Assembly (NCBI GenBank): GCA_025043315.1
Contig: GCA_025043315.1_4324.1
Source of the DNA: a phage
DNA length: 46,202 nt
Reading direction: 5' to 3' (one strand)
The position numbers were made by a program, and so were the translations under genes. Each line of letters begins with the position of its first letter. The first letter of the stretch is position 1. Positions 15,638-39,144 of this stretch are shown here, piece by piece. Under the pieces are notes generated by a model. The model worked only from the letters and a program-made list of their open reading frames with translations, was not told where the DNA came from and ran no database searches.

Positions 15638-16054
15638 TTTTGAAATCATTTCTTTGAATGCTGCAATAAAACCCTCGCGACCATAGGCCACAGCCGCGAA
15701 ACCTCCTGATTCTCTCACGCTTTTAAGGAAAGACTTCTGTTCGTTACTGACTGGACTAGCTTGTGTTTTTCCAGCTCTCTTTAGCTCTATGGCTCCAAAA
15801 GGGTACTTACCACGCAGAGATTCAGGTATCAGAAACAAGCAATCTGATACGCCCTTAAGCAATCCTTTAGCCTGGTCCTTTCTTGCCTGACCGATGCTCT
15901 TCATCGATTCATTAACCGTGTGCCAATAAACAATCTGCGGGTAGTTATACTTAACCCAATCAGAGCAAAAGATTTGTTCGTCATCCTCCTTTGGGCATGA
16001 TTTAACGGGGCCAGGGTAAAACTCAATGTAATCTTCTTTATCTGTTATGTTCAT
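15635..16054 (-). CDS. VRR-NUC domain nuclease
   Basis: PD-(D/E)XK-like GVSDCLFLIP...GAIELKRAGKTQASPVSNEQKSFL; adjacent to SF2 helicase. Confidence 0.65.
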   Translation of the reverse strand: MNITDKEDYIEFYPGPVKSCPKEDDEQIFCSDWVKYNYPQIVYWHTVNESMKSIGQARKDQAKGLLKGVSDCLFLIPESLRGKYPFGAIELKRAGKTQASPVSNEQKSFLKSVRESGGFAAVAYGREGFIAAFKEMISK

Positions 16055-18682: not shown

Positions 18683-19213
18683 GTGTATATGAAAGTTAAT
18701 GATTTTGTTTATGTTGACGATGAATTTAAATTAAGATGGAAGAGTAGAGGTGTTGAATTCTTCAAAACAGAGAGGTCATCAAAGATCTGGAATAGTAGGT
18801 TTGCAAACAAGGAATGTGGATACATTAGGGATGACGGCTATCTTTCTTTTGAGTTCAATGGTCGAGCATACAGAAATCACAGGGTGATATGGGAAATTGT
18901 AACTGGTAATGAAATAGATGATAACATGGAGATTGACCATATAGATCATAATACAACAAACAACAATATTGAAAACCTTAGACTTGTTGACAGGAAAGAG
19001 AATTGCAAAAACCAATCCATGATGCCCCATAACTCGAGTGGCTTCACAGGTGTTCACTGGTGGTCAGCAAGAAACAAATGGAGAGCCCGCATCGAATGTG
19101 ATGGCAGAGTGAAAACAAAAACATTTGAAGACTTTAATGACGCTGTCGAGTGGAGAAAAGAAATGAACATAAATCTTGGCTTTCACAAGAATCATGGAGA
19201 TAAGAAAAAATGA
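18683..19213 (+). CDS. HNH homing endonuclease with AP2-like domain (second copy)
   Basis: IDHIDHNTTNNNIENLRLVDRKENCKN, SSGFTGVHW...KWRARI. Confidence 0.75.
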   Translation: MYMKVNDFVYVDDEFKLRWKSRGVEFFKTERSSKIWNSRFANKECGYIRDDGYLSFEFNGRAYRNHRVIWEIVTGNEIDDNMEIDHIDHNTTNNNIENLRLVDRKENCKNQSMMPHNSSGFTGVHWWSARNKWRARIECDGRVKTKTFEDFNDAVEWRKEMNINLGFHKNHGDKKK

Positions 19214-20133
19214 AATTTTATGATAAGAAAGAGGTATTGCCAAGAATGATGGGGATGTGGAAGGATGCCCTCATAAACATTTGTGATGCGCCTGAGAGCT
19301 TCTTTAATGGCAAGCACCAGCCATGCCTATATTGTGGAGGTCGGGATCGGGCTAGATGGACTGATAACCTATCTATAAAAGGTGACGGCGGAAATATATG
19401 CAATCAGTGCGGAAACGACACTGGAATAGGGTTGATGATGAGGCTTACTGGAATGAACTACAGTGAGGCCATAAATGTATTAGGTGACTGGCTCAACCTT
19501 ATACCTGCAGAGGTTATATCAAAAGCAAACAAAAGAGCATCTCGTACATCACCATACAAAATGGGCGCCCAGATTGATCACGAAAGATGCTTAGAGATAA
19601 TGGAAAGGACGGAAAGAGTAGAATCAACTCCGCTCAGTACATATGAGGGTATCTATAGCGAGTTTGGTTTTGATGTTGGCAGGACGAAATCAGGCGAATT
19701 AATACACGCAGTACCGTGCTTTATGGCTTATAATGATGGCATATCAGATGATATGTGCAATGTGATGTTTATCAATGAAGAGGGAGATGTTAGTTATGCT
19801 GCAAAAGATTATACTCGCCAGTCTGTGGCTGTTATTGGTTCCTTTAAGGATGATGAGTACGCTTACCTGGTCGATAATTGGGTTGATGGTGTTCGCGTTC
19901 ATCTTGCTACTGGCAACCGCAGCGTGCTTGTTTGCCACTCCAGCTACAACATGGAAATGGTTGCTTATGCGCTTAAAAAATACAAGTTACGCGTCGCTTG
20001 TACTATCCACGATTTTGATTTACTTGCCGTTGCTGACGATCGCAATCTTGATGTTGTAATGCCAAATGATGATAATTTTTTCAAGTCAGGAATAAGAAAG
20101 AGAATATACAAGGCAAGCGAATTACTAAACTAA
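19210..20133 (+). CDS. putative DNA primase with N-terminal zinc ribbon
   Basis: C-x2-C...C-x2-C (CLYCGG...CNQCGN); replication-module position. Confidence 0.5.
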   Translation: MKFYDKKEVLPRMMGMWKDALINICDAPESFFNGKHQPCLYCGGRDRARWTDNLSIKGDGGNICNQCGNDTGIGLMMRLTGMNYSEAINVLGDWLNLIPAEVISKANKRASRTSPYKMGAQIDHERCLEIMERTERVESTPLSTYEGIYSEFGFDVGRTKSGELIHAVPCFMAYNDGISDDMCNVMFINEEGDVSYAAKDYTRQSVAVIGSFKDDEYAYLVDNWVDGVRVHLATGNRSVLVCHSSYNMEMVAYALKKYKLRVACTIHDFDLLAVADDRNLDVVMPNDDNFFKSGIRKRIYKASELLN

Positions 20134-26999: not shown

Positions 27000-27961
27000 T
27001 GCCACAGGGTATTTTAATCGACCTTAATGATGGAAGGCCAGCTATGGAGATTACTGCGGGGCTAAGAGCACCCGCCGTGACCGGCTCAATAAACACGAAT
27101 GGACTTTCAACCCCAGCAAGTTCGTGGGATTTTGGATTGACAATGTCTCCTGGCTCTACGGCTTTCTGCCTACCAACGAAAGCAGTCCACGTTGACACTT
27201 ACGATGTTATACCCGAAGTTTATTACATGAACGGGTTTCAAAAGGTAAATGACGGAACTGGCAGGATAACGCTTAGCAACTTCAATGGTGCCAATGGTCG
27301 AATAATTGACTTTGCGGGTAATTGTTTTGAAATTCTACCAGCATCATCTTCATCAAGCCCAGGGATACTCGTTGAGAACTCAACTGATTTCCTTGCTATA
27401 TCAAGCAACTCGAGACTAATGTCAGCAGCATGGGTTGGAGGCATACAGGTTAACGGGGCGGCATCGCTACCAGTTAGCGGCATACCATTCGGCAAGTGGG
27501 ATAATCCAAACGTATCACTTGAATCAGATGGATCAACAATATGGTGTAGGGATATAACCTACGGAGGTACAGATGATGTTGCGGCAAGTACTTATGTTCA
27601 GCTGGTGATATTCAGAAATGAACCCCCACCAGCCGGACCAGGACTAACAATGTCGAATAGTTCTGGTCAGATTGTTTTTTCCAGCGTTAGACGACCATTT
27701 GTTCTTGGTGGATTCATTCAGATCAACAATGGATACCAGTCAATAAATGGTGGATTCTTCCCGCTGCTCAGATGCGGCGCTACGACTAGAGTTACTGGAG
27801 GGTATAACAACTTAAGATACAAGGGGGTTTGCATGTCTGGTGGTAACGTTAGAGCAGTACCAGGTACTGTAATTGGTAACTACTCAACTCAGACTGGCGC
27901 TCAGTTCCCTTTCGACACAAATATATCAATGGCACTTCCATTTATTCCAAACTTCTACTAA
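26998..27961 (+). CDS. hypothetical protein, possibly fibre/receptor-binding-like, translationally coupled to the lipoprotein
   Basis: ATG overlaps lipoprotein stop (TAATG) with AAGGAG SD; Gly/Ser/Asn-rich 320 aa. Confidence 0.45.
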
Positions 27962-34442: not shown

Positions 34443-37418
34443 TTAGTTGAATCCACGAAGGTAAGCATACGCCCTGCCGCCCTGCTGGAAAGACTGAGCA
34501 ATCTCTTCCGCTACGATTGCCTTGACGCCGTTTTGCAATGCTTTAGCTTGCTCTGGGTCGCTACCCACCCCCGAGTTTACGTTAACAGTGATTCCGCTAA
34601 CATTAACATCCGTTCCACCAGAAACCAAACCGCCACTTGCATAACCAGATGGACCACCAACCGCGCCGCCGTTTGCATATCCCTTCATTAGAGCGTAAAG
34701 GTTTTTTACGCCAATTCTGCTAGTCGCTTCTTTTGTGAATACGAACTCACCGCGGTGTACCGTTCCTGCTGGCTGATACTTACCACCATCACCAGTATAG
34801 CCGCCGCCAGCAAAACCTATGGCAGATGCAATTGAACCAATAGCACCACCTGTGCCACCGAAGCTACTTAAGCTAGACTCGATAGCCTTGACAACAAGAA
34901 GCTGAGTTGCAATCTTGGCGATCTGCTTAAGAATGTTAACCGTGAATTCCCTGAAATTAGTCTCGCCAGTTGTTACAAGGTTTGTAATCTGGTCGGTAAT
35001 ACCTTCAAAGACCGTTGTGGTTAAACTTCCAGCAATTGAGAATGCATCCGTCGCGCTCTCAGCCCAATTAGCAAAGGATTGATTCACGCCAGCGAGCCAG
35101 TTTTCACGTAGCGCATCCTCCTGAGCATAAAAGTTACGTCTTGCTTCGAGAAGTTGCGCGAAATCTACGTCATCAAGAGAACCACCAGCATTAACCTGAT
35201 TGGACTGAAGAGCCTGAATCTCTTTGGCTCTCTGCTGCTCCCGAGAAGACAGGCCAGCACCCAAATTAATATTGCTTGCCTCATTGTTAATCTGAAGAAT
35301 CTTCTTGCGGTTATCTTCAGCTAACTTATTGGCACGCTCCTGCAAAACAATCTGATCGCCTAACTCAGCTTTCTGCCTTGCGAGTGCAAGAACTTTATCC
35401 TTCTCAATGAGAAGTCTTGCTTGCTCTTTGGTAATTGAGCCATCAATTTGCCTCTGCTCAAGAATCTGGAATTTAGCCTCTTCCTGAAGGTACTGCTTGC
35501 GCTCATTACTTATTACTGCGCCAATATCCCTGTTTTCCTGAAGTACCTTTAGTTGAGCCTGAAGTGCCAGCACGCCAGATTCGTAACCAATTGTAAGGTC
35601 TCTTTGCTCTTTAGCCCTACCATTTTCTTCTTTCCTGCTCTTCTTGATCGCATCAAGTTCATCCTGAAGCGCCTTCTTCCTTTTTGCAAACTCCTCATCA
35701 GTACCTGACTGCTCATTGGAATTCTGATTTTCCCTGCGTGTAACGTAACCAAGTTCTCCTTCTCTGATTCTGGCATCTCTCTCCCTGATAGACTTCTCTA
35801 GCTCAAGGTTTTGCTTCTTGGCGGCATCGATAATCTTCTGCTGACTCTTGATTACATCATCACCGACACCATCAAGGCCTGGGATATTCTGCAATGCCTG
35901 AGTTGCACTAATTACAAACTCACCAATCAGCGCGTCACCTTGGTTAATGAAGACCTTAATCTGTTCAATTGTCCCGGCTATTACATCAACAAACAGGTTT
36001 AGAGCCCCAACCGTTCTGCGACTAATTGCATCCCATACATCAGATATGTACTTCCTGAAGTCACTCCAGGCCAATTCAAGAGGAGTAAGCTGGGCTGCAA
36101 TATCGTTAAGGTTTGCTTCCTGTGATTTGCTAAATATATCAATGGCAGCAGTTACGGCTTCAACCTCACCCCTAGTCTCTCTCAATCTTTCAATTGTTGT
36201 TAACTGCCCCTGTGTAAGGAAGTTAAACCTCTTGTCTAAATCAGCAAGTCCTTGAATTGGGTCGCTCGCAATCTGGTTATAGTAACCAGTAATCTCCTTC
36301 GCATCCCTACCTGTCAACTGCGCCCATCTGGCGGTTGATTTGGTAATCTTGTCAATCTGAGTCAGCGTAAGGTTCCCTTGCTCAATAAGGCTTGTTGCGA
36401 TGCTAGTCACAAGTCCTCTTGTAGCACCAGTAGCGTCAGAAACAGAGCTAACCAACTCTCTAACCTGCGAGATTGATGCGATTGTAGAGTTGTTGGAGAA
36501 TGCAATCGCAGAATTTAATGCTCTGAATTCACTCTCTGCCTGAGCGGCACCGATACCGAGAGCAACAAGTGCCCCACCCAAAACGCCAACAGCAACATTG
36601 AATGGATTTAAGGCTGCGAGCGCGAATCTAAAGGTGTTACCAATACCTCCAAATGCATCCTTAATTTGTCCGCCTTGCTGAATTGCAATAAGCCAAATCG
36701 GAATGCCGCCAGCAAGTGATGTCCCAATATCTGTAATCTGCGCTGGCAATTGAGAGATTGCAGCCTTGTATTGACCTGCGCTTAATCCTGATTTCTGAAA
36801 AGCCTTACTCTGAGCAATTAACTGGGTGTTTGCCTTCTTTGATGCATCGGCGATTCTGTCAATAATAGGCGCCGCCTGAGAACTTACGCCAAGCTGAGCA
36901 GCTTGTAGCTTAAGATACTCCTCACGCGTCAATGTTGCCGCTTGAGCCTGACGCTCAAGTGATGCAATGAACCTATCCGCTTCAACCTTTGCCTTTGCCT
37001 TATCCTTTGCAGCTTGCGCTGCCGCTCTACCCTCTTCAGTTAGCGCCGCACGTGAACGAGCAAGTTTTGCGTTCTGCGTTTCAAGAGCCTCACCTAAGCG
37101 GAAAAACTCCTCATCAGGAACAACGCCAGCTGCGAATGCCTTATCAAGACCTACTGCCGCCTCCTGAAGTTTACGGAATTTTGCAGCCGTTGGGTCGATA
37201 GCTGTTTGCAACTTAGCCAGAGATGCTTTCTGCTCAGCCAGTGCGCGAGCCGTATCTCTAGCCTGGGTTTTAGCAACCTGCTCGGCATTTACGAACTCAC
37301 TAATCCCAGAGGCAGCCTGTTGGTTGGCCTGTCTGAACTTTTGCAGGGATTGCGTGCCCCTATCGACTTGCGAGACGTCTACGGCTAGTGTGATTCCGGC
37401 TAATTCATTTGTTGCCAT
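34443..37418 (-). CDS. tail tape measure protein
   Basis: 991 aa, long Ala/Gln/Glu-rich coiled-coil region, Gly-rich C-terminus; follows G/GT chaperones. Confidence 0.85.
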
Positions 37419-37453
37419 CTAAGCCTCCATAATAGAAAACCCGCCGAAGCGGG

Positions 37454-37765
37454 TTATTTTTTTCTCAGGTTATCCATCATCTCGAGAGCCTTAGCTTCAA
37501 GGATGCGTAAATCACTGAGCACCAATTCTTCTTCTGAGACATTATACACTCTAAAGAGGAAATTTAGCACGTTGTAATCTAACCCTGTAGCTCCGTTAGC
37601 TCCGACTCTCCACTGTGTCGCCATTGAACAATAAATGTCCCACGCCTTCATCATGTTTTCGTCGAAGTGTAAAACTTCAGGCTCTTCATCTTCGTAATCA
37701 GAGCGGCGCATCCCAATAGCTTCCAGTTCGGCATCAGTTGGCTCTGACTGGTACTGTAGATACAC
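37454..37765 (-). CDS. tail assembly chaperone, T-like frame, expressed as G-T fusion by -1 frameshift
   Basis: in the -1 frame relative to 37774..38088; frame open back to the slippery site. Confidence 0.55.
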   Translation of the reverse strand: MYLQYQSEPTDAELEAIGMRRSDYEDEEPEVLHFDENMMKAWDIYCSMATQWRVGANGATGLDYNVLNFLFRVYNVSEEELVLSDLRILEAKALEMMDNLRKK

Positions 37766-37773
37766 CGCCCTCT

Positions 37774-38088
37774 TTAGTTTTTTACACGCTGACCAGCCAG
37801 TGCTTGCATATAGGCGGTAGTTAGCGCAACGGTTGAAGCCGGGAACAGGTCGGAGAACTCATTAACGTTATCCTCGTTGTATTCCTCTTCCAAATCCCAA
37901 TCAGAGGCAATTGCCATGATAAGCTCTTTGGTGCTCAAATCTTCCTTGCTAAGCAATTCCTGCAGCTCTGAAGTCTTCTTGTGCTTAACTGTAAAGATAA
38001 CCTCTACATCCTGGTCGTTAGCCAGCTTGAATTTTACAGGCAGCTTAAAGTCAGGGAGTGCTGCCAGTGAAAGTTTGAACTTTGCCAT
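37774..38088 (-). CDS. tail assembly chaperone, G-like
   Basis: 104 aa acidic protein ending ...AGQRVKN; slippery heptamer A-AAA-AAC at 37777-37783. Confidence 0.6.
   Translation of the reverse strand: MAKFKLSLAALPDFKLPVKFKLANDQDVEVIFTVKHKKTSELQELLSKEDLSTKELIMAIASDWDLEEEYNEDNVNEFSDLFPASTVALTTAYMQALAGQRVKN
37777..37783 (-). other. candidate programmed -1 ribosomal frameshift site (A AAA AAC)
   Basis: heptamer in X-XXY-YYZ phase at the last two codons of the G-like ORF. Confidence 0.55.
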
Positions 38089-38127
38089 CTTAGTTAATCC
38101 TCTTATTGTTTGTGAGTATGTATTCTA

Positions 38128-38376
38128 TTACTTAGTGTTTTCTTTTGCAATCTTAGTAGCTGAGTCCTTACAAACCTCTTTGCCATATTTCATGATTTGA
38201 TCAACTTTGCCACCCACAAGTTCCTGGCATGCTCGCTCAGCTTTAGCAAACTCAACAGTATATTTGTTTGCCTTGCTGTTTGCATCGGCATCGCCAGTTG
38301 GGTTGACAATCTGAACTACTGCATAAAAAGCAACCAGAACCGCAGTAAGCTTGATGATGTTTTTAACGTTATTCAT
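38128..38376 (-). CDS. small secreted or membrane-anchored protein (moron candidate)
   Basis: N-terminal hydrophobic signal IIKLTAVLVAFYAVVQI; own promoter module upstream. Confidence 0.5.
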   Translation of the reverse strand: MNNVKNIIKLTAVLVAFYAVVQIVNPTGDADANSKANKYTVEFAKAERACQELVGGKVDQIMKYGKEVCKDSATKIAKENTK

Positions 38377-38487: not shown

Positions 38488-39144
38488 TTAAACTTCAGCT
38501 GCCACAGAGGACAGTCTACCACGAATGGATACAGCGATGGATACCGTTTCGATTTCGTTAACACCAATGGTAGGGGTGTCGTTGAAAGCGATAGTGCCGG
38601 ACTGCAAACGCATTTCCTGAGCGCGAGGTACAAACAGACGAATGGCAACAACCTGGCCTGACTCATCGTAGTTACGCAGAACCGGATAAACCGGGTTAGT
38701 GTACTCATGAGCGAAGGTGAAGGTATTCGTTACCGCAGACTTGTAAGTTGGAATCTGCTGTTCGCGGTCATCAGAAAGGCACTGGAAGCTAACAAACTGC
38801 TGTTCGCCGCCGTCAGTAGATACATCCTGAACGCACGGAACTTCGAACCAGGAAGTAATCTTAACAACTTCACCAGTTAAGCCGGCCGGGAACTTGGTGG
38901 TGTTGGAGGTATCAATACCTTCAACTGTTACCGAAGTGCCAGAAACTTCAGTTACTCGAACCTGCTTGTCACTAAGAAGCGTGGAGCTGGAGGCGGTAAA
39001 CAGAAGGTAGTCACCCTTAGCCAGGCCGGATGCGCTAGCTACGGTTAAAACTGGTTTAGGTGCGTTAGAGATTGCAGTTACATCAATTGTGTTACCGCGA
39101 GAGCCTTCTACGAAGACCTGCGTGCCATTGCTGAGATGAGCCAT
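38488..39144 (-). CDS. putative major tail protein
   Basis: 218 aa ORF immediately upstream of chaperones and followed by a strong terminator. Confidence 0.6.
   Translation of the reverse strand: MAHLSNGTQVFVEGSRGNTIDVTAISNAPKPVLTVASASGLAKGDYLLFTASSSTLLSDKQVRVTEVSGTSVTVEGIDTSNTTKFPAGLTGEVVKITSWFEVPCVQDVSTDGGEQQFVSFQCLSDDREQQIPTYKSAVTNTFTFAHEYTNPVYPVLRNYDESGQVVAIRLFVPRAQEMRLQSGTIAFNDTPTIGVNEIETVSIAVSIRGRLSSVAAEV

Follow-up and report, generated by a model that had tools for sequence, protein, structure and literature searches.

The 46,202-nt stretch of DNA analyzed here (hereafter the window) belongs to a T1-like (Drexlerviridae) coliphage, and, judging from its sequence, this siphophage very probably produces two tail assembly chaperones from a single mRNA by a −1 frameshift of the G/GT type. 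Most ribosomes would translate G (104 aa) and terminate at the TAA at 37776–37774. A small fraction, about 0.2–4% as estimated from lambda and from values published for this heptamer in E. coli, would slip backward by one base on GU-A-AAA-AAC (37783–37777); the Lys tRNA would re-pair from AAA to AAA, and the Asn tRNA may move with it or stay. The slipped ribosomes would then read 107 further codons in the −1 frame to yield a 211-aa G-T fusion. A stable RNA hairpin, the base of which lies 5 nt 3' of the heptamer, probably aids the slip, and the adjacent stop codon possibly does so as well. We infer the occurrence and efficiency of the shift, the roles of the hairpin and the stop, and the function in assembly from the analyses described below.

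The feature is already known: it is the standard G/GT frameshift of T1-like coliphages. GenBank holds a joined frameshift coding sequence for vB_ecoS_OzMSK (PQ659294.1), which matches the window exactly at the junction (GTAAAAAACTAAAGAGGGCGGTGTATC) and is 91.6% identical in DNA across the locus, and for LL5 (MH491968.1), which has the same A_AAA_AAC TAA as the window phage. A G/GT frameshift has also been stated in print for the T1-like Klebsiella phage Skenny (MK931444; PMC6763657). The window phage is a different isolate from these annotated relatives (best match, 94.2% identity), and the frameshift is unannotated in most other relatives, including the RefSeq record of T1. We therefore recommend annotating G plus a joined G-T coding sequence rather than two independent genes; the name "tail length tape measure protein", given to them in PHROG-derived and RefSeq labels, is the wrong label for G and T. 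The short and long isoforms set the stoichiometry of tail assembly, and the N-terminal core common to both is a target of bacterial Avs17 immune receptors (PMC13581612); for these reasons, correct isoform models matter for phage engineering and defence studies. Our comparison across the family, with its weak heptamer at the stop, tetramer swaps and recurrent hairpin, leaves the known picture unchanged.

The minus strand of the window carries the tail genes in the order tail tube, small ORF, G, T and tape measure, as follows.

38488–39144, minus strand: major tail (tube) protein gene, upstream of G (Pfam Phage_tail_3, E = 4.2e-68; phrog_584)
Between the tail tube gene and G, minus strand: an extra 82-aa ORF from the ORF list
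37774–38088, minus strand: G-like tail assembly chaperone ORF in the 0 frame (ORF list, translation, Pfam and PHROG)
37454–37777, minus strand: T-domain coding sequence, read in the −1 frame; its 107 codons begin with CTA at 37777 and are closed by TAA at 37456–37454
37454–37765, minus strand: T ORF with a GTG start, as given in the program-made ORF list
34443–37418, minus strand: tape measure protein gene (991 aa), directly downstream of T (TMP_2, E = 5.8e-49; Tape_meas_lam_C, E = 1.8e-19; phrog_24)

The two small ORFs, G and T, thus sit between the tail tube and tape measure genes, as in G/GT systems. G encodes a protein of 104 aa (11.8 kDa), its ATG start is preceded by TAAGAGGA, and it matches PF08748 (Phage_TAC_4) with E = 6.1e-33 and 114.1 bits (cutoff 21.1). 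Residues 1–104 cover positions 1–124 of the 124 in the profile, i.e., the match is full-length and exceeds the gathering threshold. T matches PF08809 (DUF1799) with E = 2.6e-16 and 60.1 bits (cutoff 26) over positions 1–80 of 80. Among PHROGs, G is matched by phrog_569 and phrog_17368, and T by phrog_680 and phrog_17368. When the hypothetical G-T fusion was compared with PHROG 17368, residues 1–207 aligned to positions 1–210 of the 213-position profile (E = 8.6e-82). A search for homologous proteins with the fusion as the query returned one partial match, and a sequence search of the PDB returned nothing at E ≤ 1. Single-sequence structure models (pLDDT 54 for G and 50 for T) were too poor for a fold search.

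The elements surrounding the end of G are listed below.

37777–37783, minus strand: slippery heptamer A_AAA_AAC, in phase (sequence and conservation)
37774–37776, minus strand: 0-frame stop TAA, directly 3' of the heptamer and overlapping the −1-frame Leu codon CTA (37777–37775)
37763–37773, minus strand: SD-like AGAGGG (37773–37768) and GTG (37765–37763), the start of the listed T ORF
37700–37771, minus strand: predicted RNA hairpin and candidate frameshift stimulator, from folding, beginning 5 nt 3' of the heptamer

An earlier note on this DNA had proposed, from the letters and the ORF list, that G ends in GTA AAA AAC TAA, that its last two codons form the heptamer in the correct phase and that T is open in the −1 frame from that site. 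We confirmed all three. On the minus strand, the 3' end of G reads CAG CGT GTA AAA AAC TAA, and translation places Lys AAA at 37782–37780 and Asn AAC at 37779–37777 in the 0 frame, with the A of GTA at 37783 preceding them. The −1 frame across the junction is TGT AAA AAA CTA AAG AGG GCG GTG TAT CTA CAG; it contains no stop between 37858, which lies 82 nt before the G stop, and the TAA that ends T (37456–37454). A stop between the heptamer and 37765 was looked for in particular and is absent. A_AAA_AAC is the sole in-phase heptamer of the overlap zone. The predicted slip product, for which the note had given about 210 aa, comprises 211 aa (24.3 kDa). A tandem slip of the Lys and Asn tRNAs would make its junction QRVK-N-LKRAVYLQYQ, and a slip of the Lys tRNA alone, before Asn is decoded, would make it QRVK-K-LKRAVYLQYQ. 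The junction residue may accordingly be N or K, both of which are compatible with the sequence; the note had given the K version alone, which holds for the Lys-only slip, but the N version is equally allowed. The calculated chymotryptic junction peptides are MQALAGQRVKNLKRAVY (1945.10 Da, monoisotopic) for the tandem slip and MQALAGQRVKKLKRAVY (1959.16 Da) for the Lys-only slip.

The heptamer is not significant by itself because its count in the window equals the chance expectation (12 AAAAAAC observed vs 12.0 ± 3.5 expected). The case for a frameshift site is made by position and conservation, not by the motif alone. As a window-wide control, we collected the in-phase X_XXY_YYZ heptamers within ORFs of at least 80 aa, 44 in total. 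Only at the junction site do 0 codons of the 0 frame remain after the heptamer, and no other site has so long a −1 extension (106 codons beyond the 0-frame stop).

We took relatives from phage records and from IMG/VR, and 41 remained after redundancy was removed. Conservation of the heptamer, which the earlier note had suggested checking, is extensive: A_AAA_AAC followed by the stop lies at exactly −7 from the G stop in 33 of the 41 relatives, down to 27% protein identity, and the remaining 8 keep A_AAR at the same place, so that A_AAR is found in 41/41. The base preceding the Lys codon is A in every one of the 41, though the codon to which it belongs specifies V, A, E or T, and the stop is at the identical position in all of them (TAA in 39, TGA in 2). 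In a heptamer-blind sample, consisting of T1 and a spread of tblastn matches, G ends in A_AAA_AAC TAA in T1, TR3, K50, LL5, Sip, CJ19, phi2457T and Phc, and likewise in the Dhillonvirus SECphi4, with 27.5% identity. In SECphi4, a −1-frame TGA adjoins the 5' side of the heptamer, which would confine any shift to the heptamer itself. A further sample of 80 IMG/VR loci contained AAAAAAC plus the stop in 51, AAAAGTT or AAAAGCC in 22 and AAAGGTC in 5; these counts are biased toward the heptamer because one of the two patterns by which the loci were found includes the K-N codons. Position, phase and adjacent stop are kept across approximately 1000 phage records, and the conservation of the site far exceeds chance. 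In subclades, an A_AAG or A_AAA tetramer occupies the place of the heptamer.

Conservation extends into the −1 frame past the G stop. Among the 41 relatives, the residues that follow are Leu in 41, Lys in 35, Arg in 40, Ala in 40 and Val in 39, and the run L-K-R-A-V-Y-L before and at the GTG is conserved while its synonymous codons turn over freely: Arg is encoded by AGG, CGA, CGC or CGG, Ala by four codons, and Val by GTT (25), GTA (6), GTC (5) or GTG (3). The −1 frame is thus under selection where the 0 frame has already terminated.

The hairpin predicted 3' of the heptamer consists of a 5' arm (37771–37747) and a 3' arm (37727–37700) forming about 25 bp, topped by a short apical stem. Its MFE is −35.8 kcal/mol, with z = −3.4 against dinucleotide shuffles and z = −3.8 (0/300) against a null that preserves the T protein with synonymous codons randomised. 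The main arms carry no disruptive substitution in 7 distinct sequences of the clade. Across the family, the junction has a median z of −1.6, and 18 of the 41 relatives fall below −1.64, vs a median of about 0 and 3–5 of 41 for two control coding segments. In most clades, the stem starts 5–7 nt past the heptamer. The hairpin does not occur throughout the family (z > 0 in the A_AAG clade and several others), and its 3' arm varies among clades, with clade-specific partners. Covariation is weak: for the compact hairpin of the T1 clade, 3 compensatory cells were counted, and the observed pairing was reached by 18 of 500 shuffles. Because the covariation test gave few compensatory changes, the claim for the hairpin rests on its excess stability and spacing. 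A search against Rfam gave no family match, only a sub-threshold chance match to rsmX on the terminator hairpin.

Three other explanations of the locus were weighed. That the heptamer and the open −1 frame coincide by accident, T being unrelated to the expression of G or non-functional, would agree with the chance frequency of AAAAAAC in the window, but it is effectively refuted by the comparative data and its probability is negligible: position, phase and stop persist through the phage records, down to 27% protein identity; T belongs to a conserved Pfam family; and the site ranks first of the 44 in the window-wide control. An origin at the RNA level is also extremely improbable: slippage of RNA polymerase on the A6 run would lengthen some transcripts by one A and place G and T in a single frame. 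A homopolymeric A run does lie at the junction, and certain IS elements and type III secretion genes are known to reach an equivalent result by transcriptional slippage (PMC5009743). The records of four relatives, moreover, have A5 rather than A6, indicating that the run is prone to indels, either biologically or in sequencing. However, related clades share the architecture with only A4 (GCA AAA GTT) or A3 (GCA AAG GTC), runs that are far too short for this mechanism; productive slippage in E. coli generally requires runs of about 9 or more. Furthermore, the conserved element is a phase-specific A_AAR, not the length of the run, and the downstream hairpin lies at the canonical spacing for a ribosomal stimulator. 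A +1 frameshift as a general mechanism, considered on account of the A5 variants, was rejected: there are few A5 records, 2725-N35 among them, and errors are plain to see in at least one.

T might instead be a separate gene, initiated or re-initiated at the GTG at 37765 via AGAGGG to give a free 103-aa T (12.1 kDa) with no frameshift. In the window and its close clade, the GTG does have the purine-rich AGAGGG upstream, and the G stop lies 11 nt upstream of it; short-range termination-reinitiation is common among phage operons. The OzMSK record states that T "also has independent RBS", and most GenBank relatives are annotated in this style. This is nevertheless a very improbable account of T expression. 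Only 3 of the 41 relatives, all from the window's own clade, show a start codon where the GTG lies, the GTG being replaced by GTT, GTA or GTC in 36 of the 39 with Val there, and in T1, Sip, TR3, LL5 and others there is no start for 50–122 nt. The conservation of five −1-frame codons before the GTG would be left unexplained. In the −1 frame, AGAGGG simply reads as Lys-Arg (AAG AGG), just as the GTG is a Val codon; EC3a and Rtp keep the GTG but have AACGAG in place of AGAGGG. GAGG and GTG are separated by only 3 nt, and the SD-like element and the start codon are both paired within the predicted hairpin of about −35 kcal/mol. By sequestering them, the hairpin would cause T to be made essentially only as the fusion. 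The annotation style has a parallel in lambda, whose RefSeq record also lists a GTG-started T, yet lambda T is made as a GT fusion (PMC5009743).

Since the GTG and the SD-like AGAGGG are present, an independent T product is conceivable in the window's clade, but initiation at the GTG, even as a minor extra route confined to that clade, is unlikely. We also consider it unlikely that the Rtp/EC3a-like Braunvirinae, to which the window belongs, run a dual expression mode for T by slip and re-initiation. On such a reading, the clade-specific hairpin (37771–37700) may both stimulate the weak slip and mask the GTG, and ribosomes terminating at the TAA may unfold it and occasionally re-initiate to give free T. 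If so, T dosage would be set by two coupled recoding/reinitiation events, unlike in lambda.

The frameshift that we favor closely resembles the G-GT frameshift of lambda, which yields G and GT at about 30:1 and is widely conserved among long-tailed phages (PMC5009743; this review by Atkins et al. summarises the gpG/gpGT studies of Levin, Hendrix & Casjens 1993 and Xu, Hendrix & Duda 2004, 2013, 2014). In both phages, the major tail protein gene and the tape measure gene flank a pair of ORFs. The second of the pair is in the −1 frame and, here as far as the sequence indicates, extends the first at its C-terminus; G carries a slippery heptamer of low-efficiency design close to its 3' end, and T is often entered in database records as a coding sequence of its own with a GTG start. 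By analogy with lambda gpG/gpGT, many G and few GT would coat the tape measure protein, the T domain would recruit the tail tube protein, and neither chaperone would end up in the virion. The systems differ in the heptamer (G_GGA_AAG, 15 nt before the G stop, in lambda vs A_AAA_AAC adjoining the stop in the window phage), in the strong predicted 3' hairpin, which sets the window site apart from lambda, and in protein family (Phage_TAC_2 and Phage_tail_T in lambda vs Phage_TAC_4 and DUF1799). The lambda families PF06894 (gpG) and PF06223 (gpT) did not match the window proteins at E < 1, while lambda G and T match these families strongly, and hhalign of the family alignments detected no homology (probability 0.7% vs lambda T and 0.2% vs lambda G). 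We conclude that G/T of the window would work like lambda G/GT but lies outside the lambda G/T sequence families. The earlier note's comparison of the position just upstream of the tape measure gene with the conserved tail-chaperone frameshift is borne out by gene order, Pfam families and relatives. Its names, G-like and T-like, are apt with regard to gene identity, order and frames, but not in the sense of sequence homology to lambda G/T.

A_AAA_AAC is a proven −1 site in insA-insB' of IS1 in E. coli, where it operates at about 1.6–2% (PMC12903888, PMC4066793). The window phage shares with IS1 the identical heptamer, the host translation system, a site near the end of the upstream ORF and a low-level fusion. 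IS1 has no established stimulator, whereas the window site has the predicted hairpin 5 nt downstream and the stop directly after the heptamer; the products, a transposase and a chaperone, are unrelated. In common with dnaX and IS911/IS3, the window site has an A-rich heptamer read by the single E. coli Lys tRNA and a hairpin at 5–7 nt. Unlike the window site, where the heptamer ends in C, dnaX has A_AAA_AAG and an upstream SD-like enhancer. Such an enhancer was considered for the window site and none is visible, GGAG, GAGG and AGGA all being absent 6–17 nt upstream of the heptamer; the downstream hairpin is the sole part of the tripartite dnaX signal present.

With stimulators, A_AAA_AAG of the dnaX and IS911/IS3 type shifts at 4–39%, vs 0.2–0.7% for A_AAA_AAC. 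The latter is weak in E. coli reporters: it gives 0.16% by itself, and the IS911 stimulators or the IS3 pseudoknot bring this to 0.19% or 0.74%, respectively. Given this poor shifting, functional GT would need either a very low requirement or help from the context. The weak motif fits a low GT:G ratio. On a less likely reading, the invariance of "A_AAR, one codon, stop" across Drexlerviridae might mean that the stop codon itself belongs to the frameshift signal. A weak heptamer adjoining the stop was observed consistently in the E. coli phages of the family.

The tail genes flanking the junction all lie on the minus strand and are listed here in the order in which they are read, with their Pfam matches.

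38488-39144, minus strand: tail tube gene (Phage_tail_3, E = 4e-68)
37774-38088, minus strand: G, a G-like ORF of 104 aa with the 3' end CAG CGT GTA AAA AAC TAA (Phage_TAC_4, full length, E = 6e-33)
37783-37777, minus strand: heptamer A_AAA_AAC, in which AAA and AAC are 0-frame codons
37776-37774, minus strand: 0-frame stop TAA, directly 3' of the heptamer
37454-37765, minus strand: T as listed, from a GTG start to the stop TAA at 37456-37454 (DUF1799, E = 3e-16)
34443-37418, minus strand: tape measure gene (TMP_2, E = 6e-49; Tape_meas_lam_C, E = 2e-19)

Because of this 3' end of G, the heptamer is placed at 37783-37777, and minus-strand translation confirmed the claim of the earlier note that G ends GTA AAA AAC TAA with the slippery sequence in phase. 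The -1 frame reads ...TGT AAA AAA CTA AAG AGG GCG GTG TAT CTA CAG... across the junction and has no stop from 37858 to the TAA that ends the listed T ORF; T thus lies in the -1 frame and is open at the heptamer, as had been claimed. The predicted product of a -1 slip is 211 aa (24.3 kDa), where about 210 aa had been estimated. Its junction would be ...QRVK-N-LKRAVYLQYQ... if the Lys tRNA and the Asn tRNA slip jointly, and ...QRVK-K-LKRAVY... if the Lys tRNA alone slips ahead of Asn decoding, the latter being the peptide proposed earlier. All factual statements of the earlier note were borne out by the sequence and its interpretation is supported; we consider it very likely that a G-T fusion is made through -1 ribosomal frameshifting at 37783-37777. 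The hypothetical fusion matched PHROG 17368 over the whole 213-position profile (E = 9e-82), and therefore full-length fusions are already present among annotated phage proteins.

The window DNA is 91-94% identical to T1-like coliphages (Drexlerviridae, Braunvirinae), among them vB_EcoS_FP, CEB_EC3a and DTL. A tblastn search with G found a homologue in 993 phage records, and junctions were read in T1, in ten records spanning the range of identities and in 94 IMG/VR loci. Throughout a sample taken blind to the heptamer (T1, TR3, K50, LL5, Sip, CJ19, phi2457T, Phc and the Dhillonvirus SECphi4), G ends N-N-A AAA AAC TAA, down to SECphi4 at 27.5% identity. In SECphi4 a -1-frame TGA directly precedes the heptamer and a 0-frame TAA directly follows it, so a shift is possible only on those seven bases. 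Conservation among relatives, a check that the earlier note had proposed, was seen as AAAAAAC plus a stop at the G end in 51 of 80 IMG/VR loci, AAAAGTT or AAAAGCC plus TAA in 22, AAAGGTC plus TAA in five and anomalous ends in two, proportions that are biased, since the scan relied on two peptide patterns and the K-N codons fall within one of them. The base before the Lys codon is A in all 41 non-redundant junctions, the preceding codon encoding V, A, E or T, and the stop stands at a fixed place, one codon beyond the codon next to the Lys codon (41/41). AKS96/C119-like coliphages (L013-L017 / L040-L044) have GCA AAG GTC TAA, with an A_AAG tetramer at the heptamer position, and Klebsiella T1-like phages (L025, L086-L108) have GCA AAA GTT or GCC TAA, with an A_AAA tetramer.

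The junction contains A5 instead of A6 (GTAAAAACTAA) in MN840485.1 (2725-N35, L002), MW032452.1 (N5822, L026) and the IMG/VR loci L068 and L085, four independent relatives in all, in which G is longer by ~13 aa and T is in the +1 frame. These junctions are probably homopolymer sequencing errors; if real, the alleles would need a +1 shift. N5822 has further frame breaks. Records named Campylobacter phage A110b, A14a and A131 and Pseudomonas phage PsgS01F (H12, H24, H54, H55) are ~92% identical here to E. coli T1-like phages, and PsgS01F equals coliphage UALMA_PCEc3 in record length, match length and identity to the query; these host assignments look doubtful.

A fixed amino acid with synonymous turnover is the mark of translated sequence, and the five -1-frame codons that directly follow the slip and lead to the window's GTG provide the strongest evidence for T being reached via frameshifting.

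Table. Conservation of -1-frame codons 1-5 after the slip in 41 non-redundant junctions
Leu: 41/41; CTA, TTA, CTG
Lys: 35/41; AAA, AAG
Arg: 40/41; AGG 12, CGA 1, CGC 8, CGG 19
Ala: 40/41; GCG, GCA, GCT, GCC
Val: 39/41; GTT 25, GTA 6, GTC 5, GTG 3

T could instead start independently at GTG 37765-37763, with AGAGGG (37773-37768) as its ribosome-binding site (RBS); the two resemble an RBS and a start in the window's clade, and the annotators of OzMSK remarked on an "independent RBS". Weighing against this, the residues before GTG are fixed with synonymous turnover, and a start codon occurs at the Val position in only 3/41 junctions, those of the window's own clade; in T1, Sip and others, no ATG, GTG or TTG appears before +50 to +122. 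AGG is merely the -1-frame Arg codon, which is CGA in EC3a and Rtp where GTG is kept, the GAGG-to-GTG spacing is only 3 nt, and both AGAGGG and GTG are base-paired in a predicted hairpin. The lambda RefSeq record likewise lists a GTG-started T, yet T is made as GT (PMC5009743). Reinitiation may be a minor contributor to T in the window's clade only. The T1 RefSeq record (NC_005833.1, L018), which has no G-T frameshift annotation, calls gp39 from an internal ATG at 19339 and leaves an unexplained 150-nt "non-coding" gap after gp40 (19190-19338), the stretch that encodes the conserved N-terminal part of the T domain in the -1 frame.

Transcriptional slippage as the source of the frame change is unlikely because the variants A_AAA_GTT and A_AAG_GTC have runs of just 3-4 A. 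Two-tRNA slippage cannot occur on these variants, and we therefore infer that re-pairing of the Lys tRNA on A_AAR is most likely the conserved core of the ribosomal event. Reporter assays in E. coli put the AAAAAAC shift at 0.16% unstimulated, 0.19% when the IS911 stimulators are present and 0.74% with the IS3 pseudoknot; AAAAAAG shifts at 0.29%, 4.3% and 39% under the same conditions (Sharma et al. 2014, Table S3). The A6C motif is the proven IS1 frameshift site (~1.6-2%; PMC12903888, PMC4066793), and the lambda G:GT ratio is ~30:1 (PMC5009743). A weak heptamer helped by the hairpin, and perhaps also by the adjacent stop, would thus fit a chaperone required at a few percent of G. Judging from the overlapping codons, C rather than G at heptamer position 7 may be imposed, since this base also opens the -1-frame Leu codon (C/T)TA, which is invariant and itself overlaps the stop.

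The predicted ~25-bp hairpin (37771-37747 paired with 37727-37700) begins 5 nt past the heptamer and has an MFE of -35.8 kcal/mol (z = -3.4, dinucleotide shuffles); against a synonymous-codon null that kept the T protein, the values were -35.1 vs -20.1 +/- 3.9 kcal/mol (z = -3.8, 0/300). For the junction segment, the median z over the 41 relatives was -1.6, with z < -1.64 in 18; for two control coding segments the figures were ~0 and 3-5. In T1 and phages of the Tempevirinae type the hairpin is compact, GGGCGGUUU...AAACCGCCC, and lies 6-7 nt past the heptamer; SECphi4 and the Klebsiella clade show variants of their own. For the A_AAG clade no 3' hairpin is predicted (z > 0), which is odd because tetramer slip sites are reported to be stimulator-dependent (PMC4066793). 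No disruptive substitution was found in the main arms among 7 distinct window-clade sequences, covariation in the T1-type hairpin was weak (78% of cells pair vs 36-53% in slid controls; 3 compensatory), and an Rfam search gave no family match. Given the excess stability and the spacing, combined with weak covariation, we regard the hairpin as a stimulator that is probable but unproven, and the chance that it stimulates the frameshift as about even.

The window contains AAAAAAC 12 times, vs 12.0 +/- 3.5 in dinucleotide-preserving shuffles; the heptamer alone, without its context, is no more than chance. Among 44 in-phase X_XXY_YYZ heptamers within window ORFs of at least 80 aa, the one at the G end has zero 0-frame codons remaining and the longest -1 run beyond the 0-frame stop (106 codons), the runner-up being a 71-codon extension antisense to a 1141-aa gene. 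Other in-phase heptamers near ORF ends are G_GGT_TTT (15668-15674, minus), T_TTT_TTC (20076-20082, plus) and C_CCT_TTC (27907-27913, plus), with -1 frames running 27-71 codons past the stop; the last, whose extension is antisense to the 1141-aa gene, is probably chance.

The window's G/T resemble lambda G/GT in function and position. The families differ (Phage_TAC_4 and DUF1799 vs Phage_TAC_2 and Phage_tail_T in lambda), hhalign detected no relationship between them (probabilities 0.2-0.7%), and the lambda slip site G_GGA_AAG lies 15 nt ahead of the stop, whereas A_AAA_AAC abuts it. The system is thus lambda-type functionally, not by sequence. Within the phage family, joined CDSs are already annotated at the identical junction of OzMSK and at the same site in LL5, and PMC6763657 mentions a G/GT frameshift in the T1-like phage Skenny. 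The practical worth lies in correct annotation and ready controls for engineering the phage. PHROG 569, 680 and 17368 and many relatives' RefSeq records label the G/T homologues "tail length tape measure protein", in the RefSeq records three times consecutively; this is a propagated mislabel of chaperones.

An 82-aa ORF (38128-38376, minus; phrog_22925, function unassigned there) separates the tail tube gene from G; it has a hydrophobic N-terminal segment and no match in a Pfam search, and is preceded by a strong terminator-like hairpin (38482-38463). It is found in EC3a, OzMSK and 2725-N35 and is absent from T1, and so looks like a moron-type insertion. Within its 3' end, just upstream of the G start, is a sigma-70-like promoter match (38122-38150, minus; TTGCAA, 17 nt, TAGAAT), and in EC3a a promoter was marked by its authors at the corresponding position; besides transcripts reading through from the tail tube gene, G-T may be served by a promoter of its own. 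The T stop and the start of the tape measure gene are 35 nt apart, and in this gap lies a terminator-like hairpin (37438-37455, minus), AACCCGCTTCGGCGGGTT, with TTCTATT after it. T itself ends AGA AAA AAA TAA, an in-phase A_AAA_AAA (37457-37463, minus) at which a hypothetical -1 shift would add 12 codons, ending at a TAG that immediately adjoins the tape measure ATG; this heptamer is probably due to chance because T C-termini vary among relatives. The A7 run doubles as the T-tract of the AACCCGCTTCGGCGGGTT hairpin on the opposite strand.
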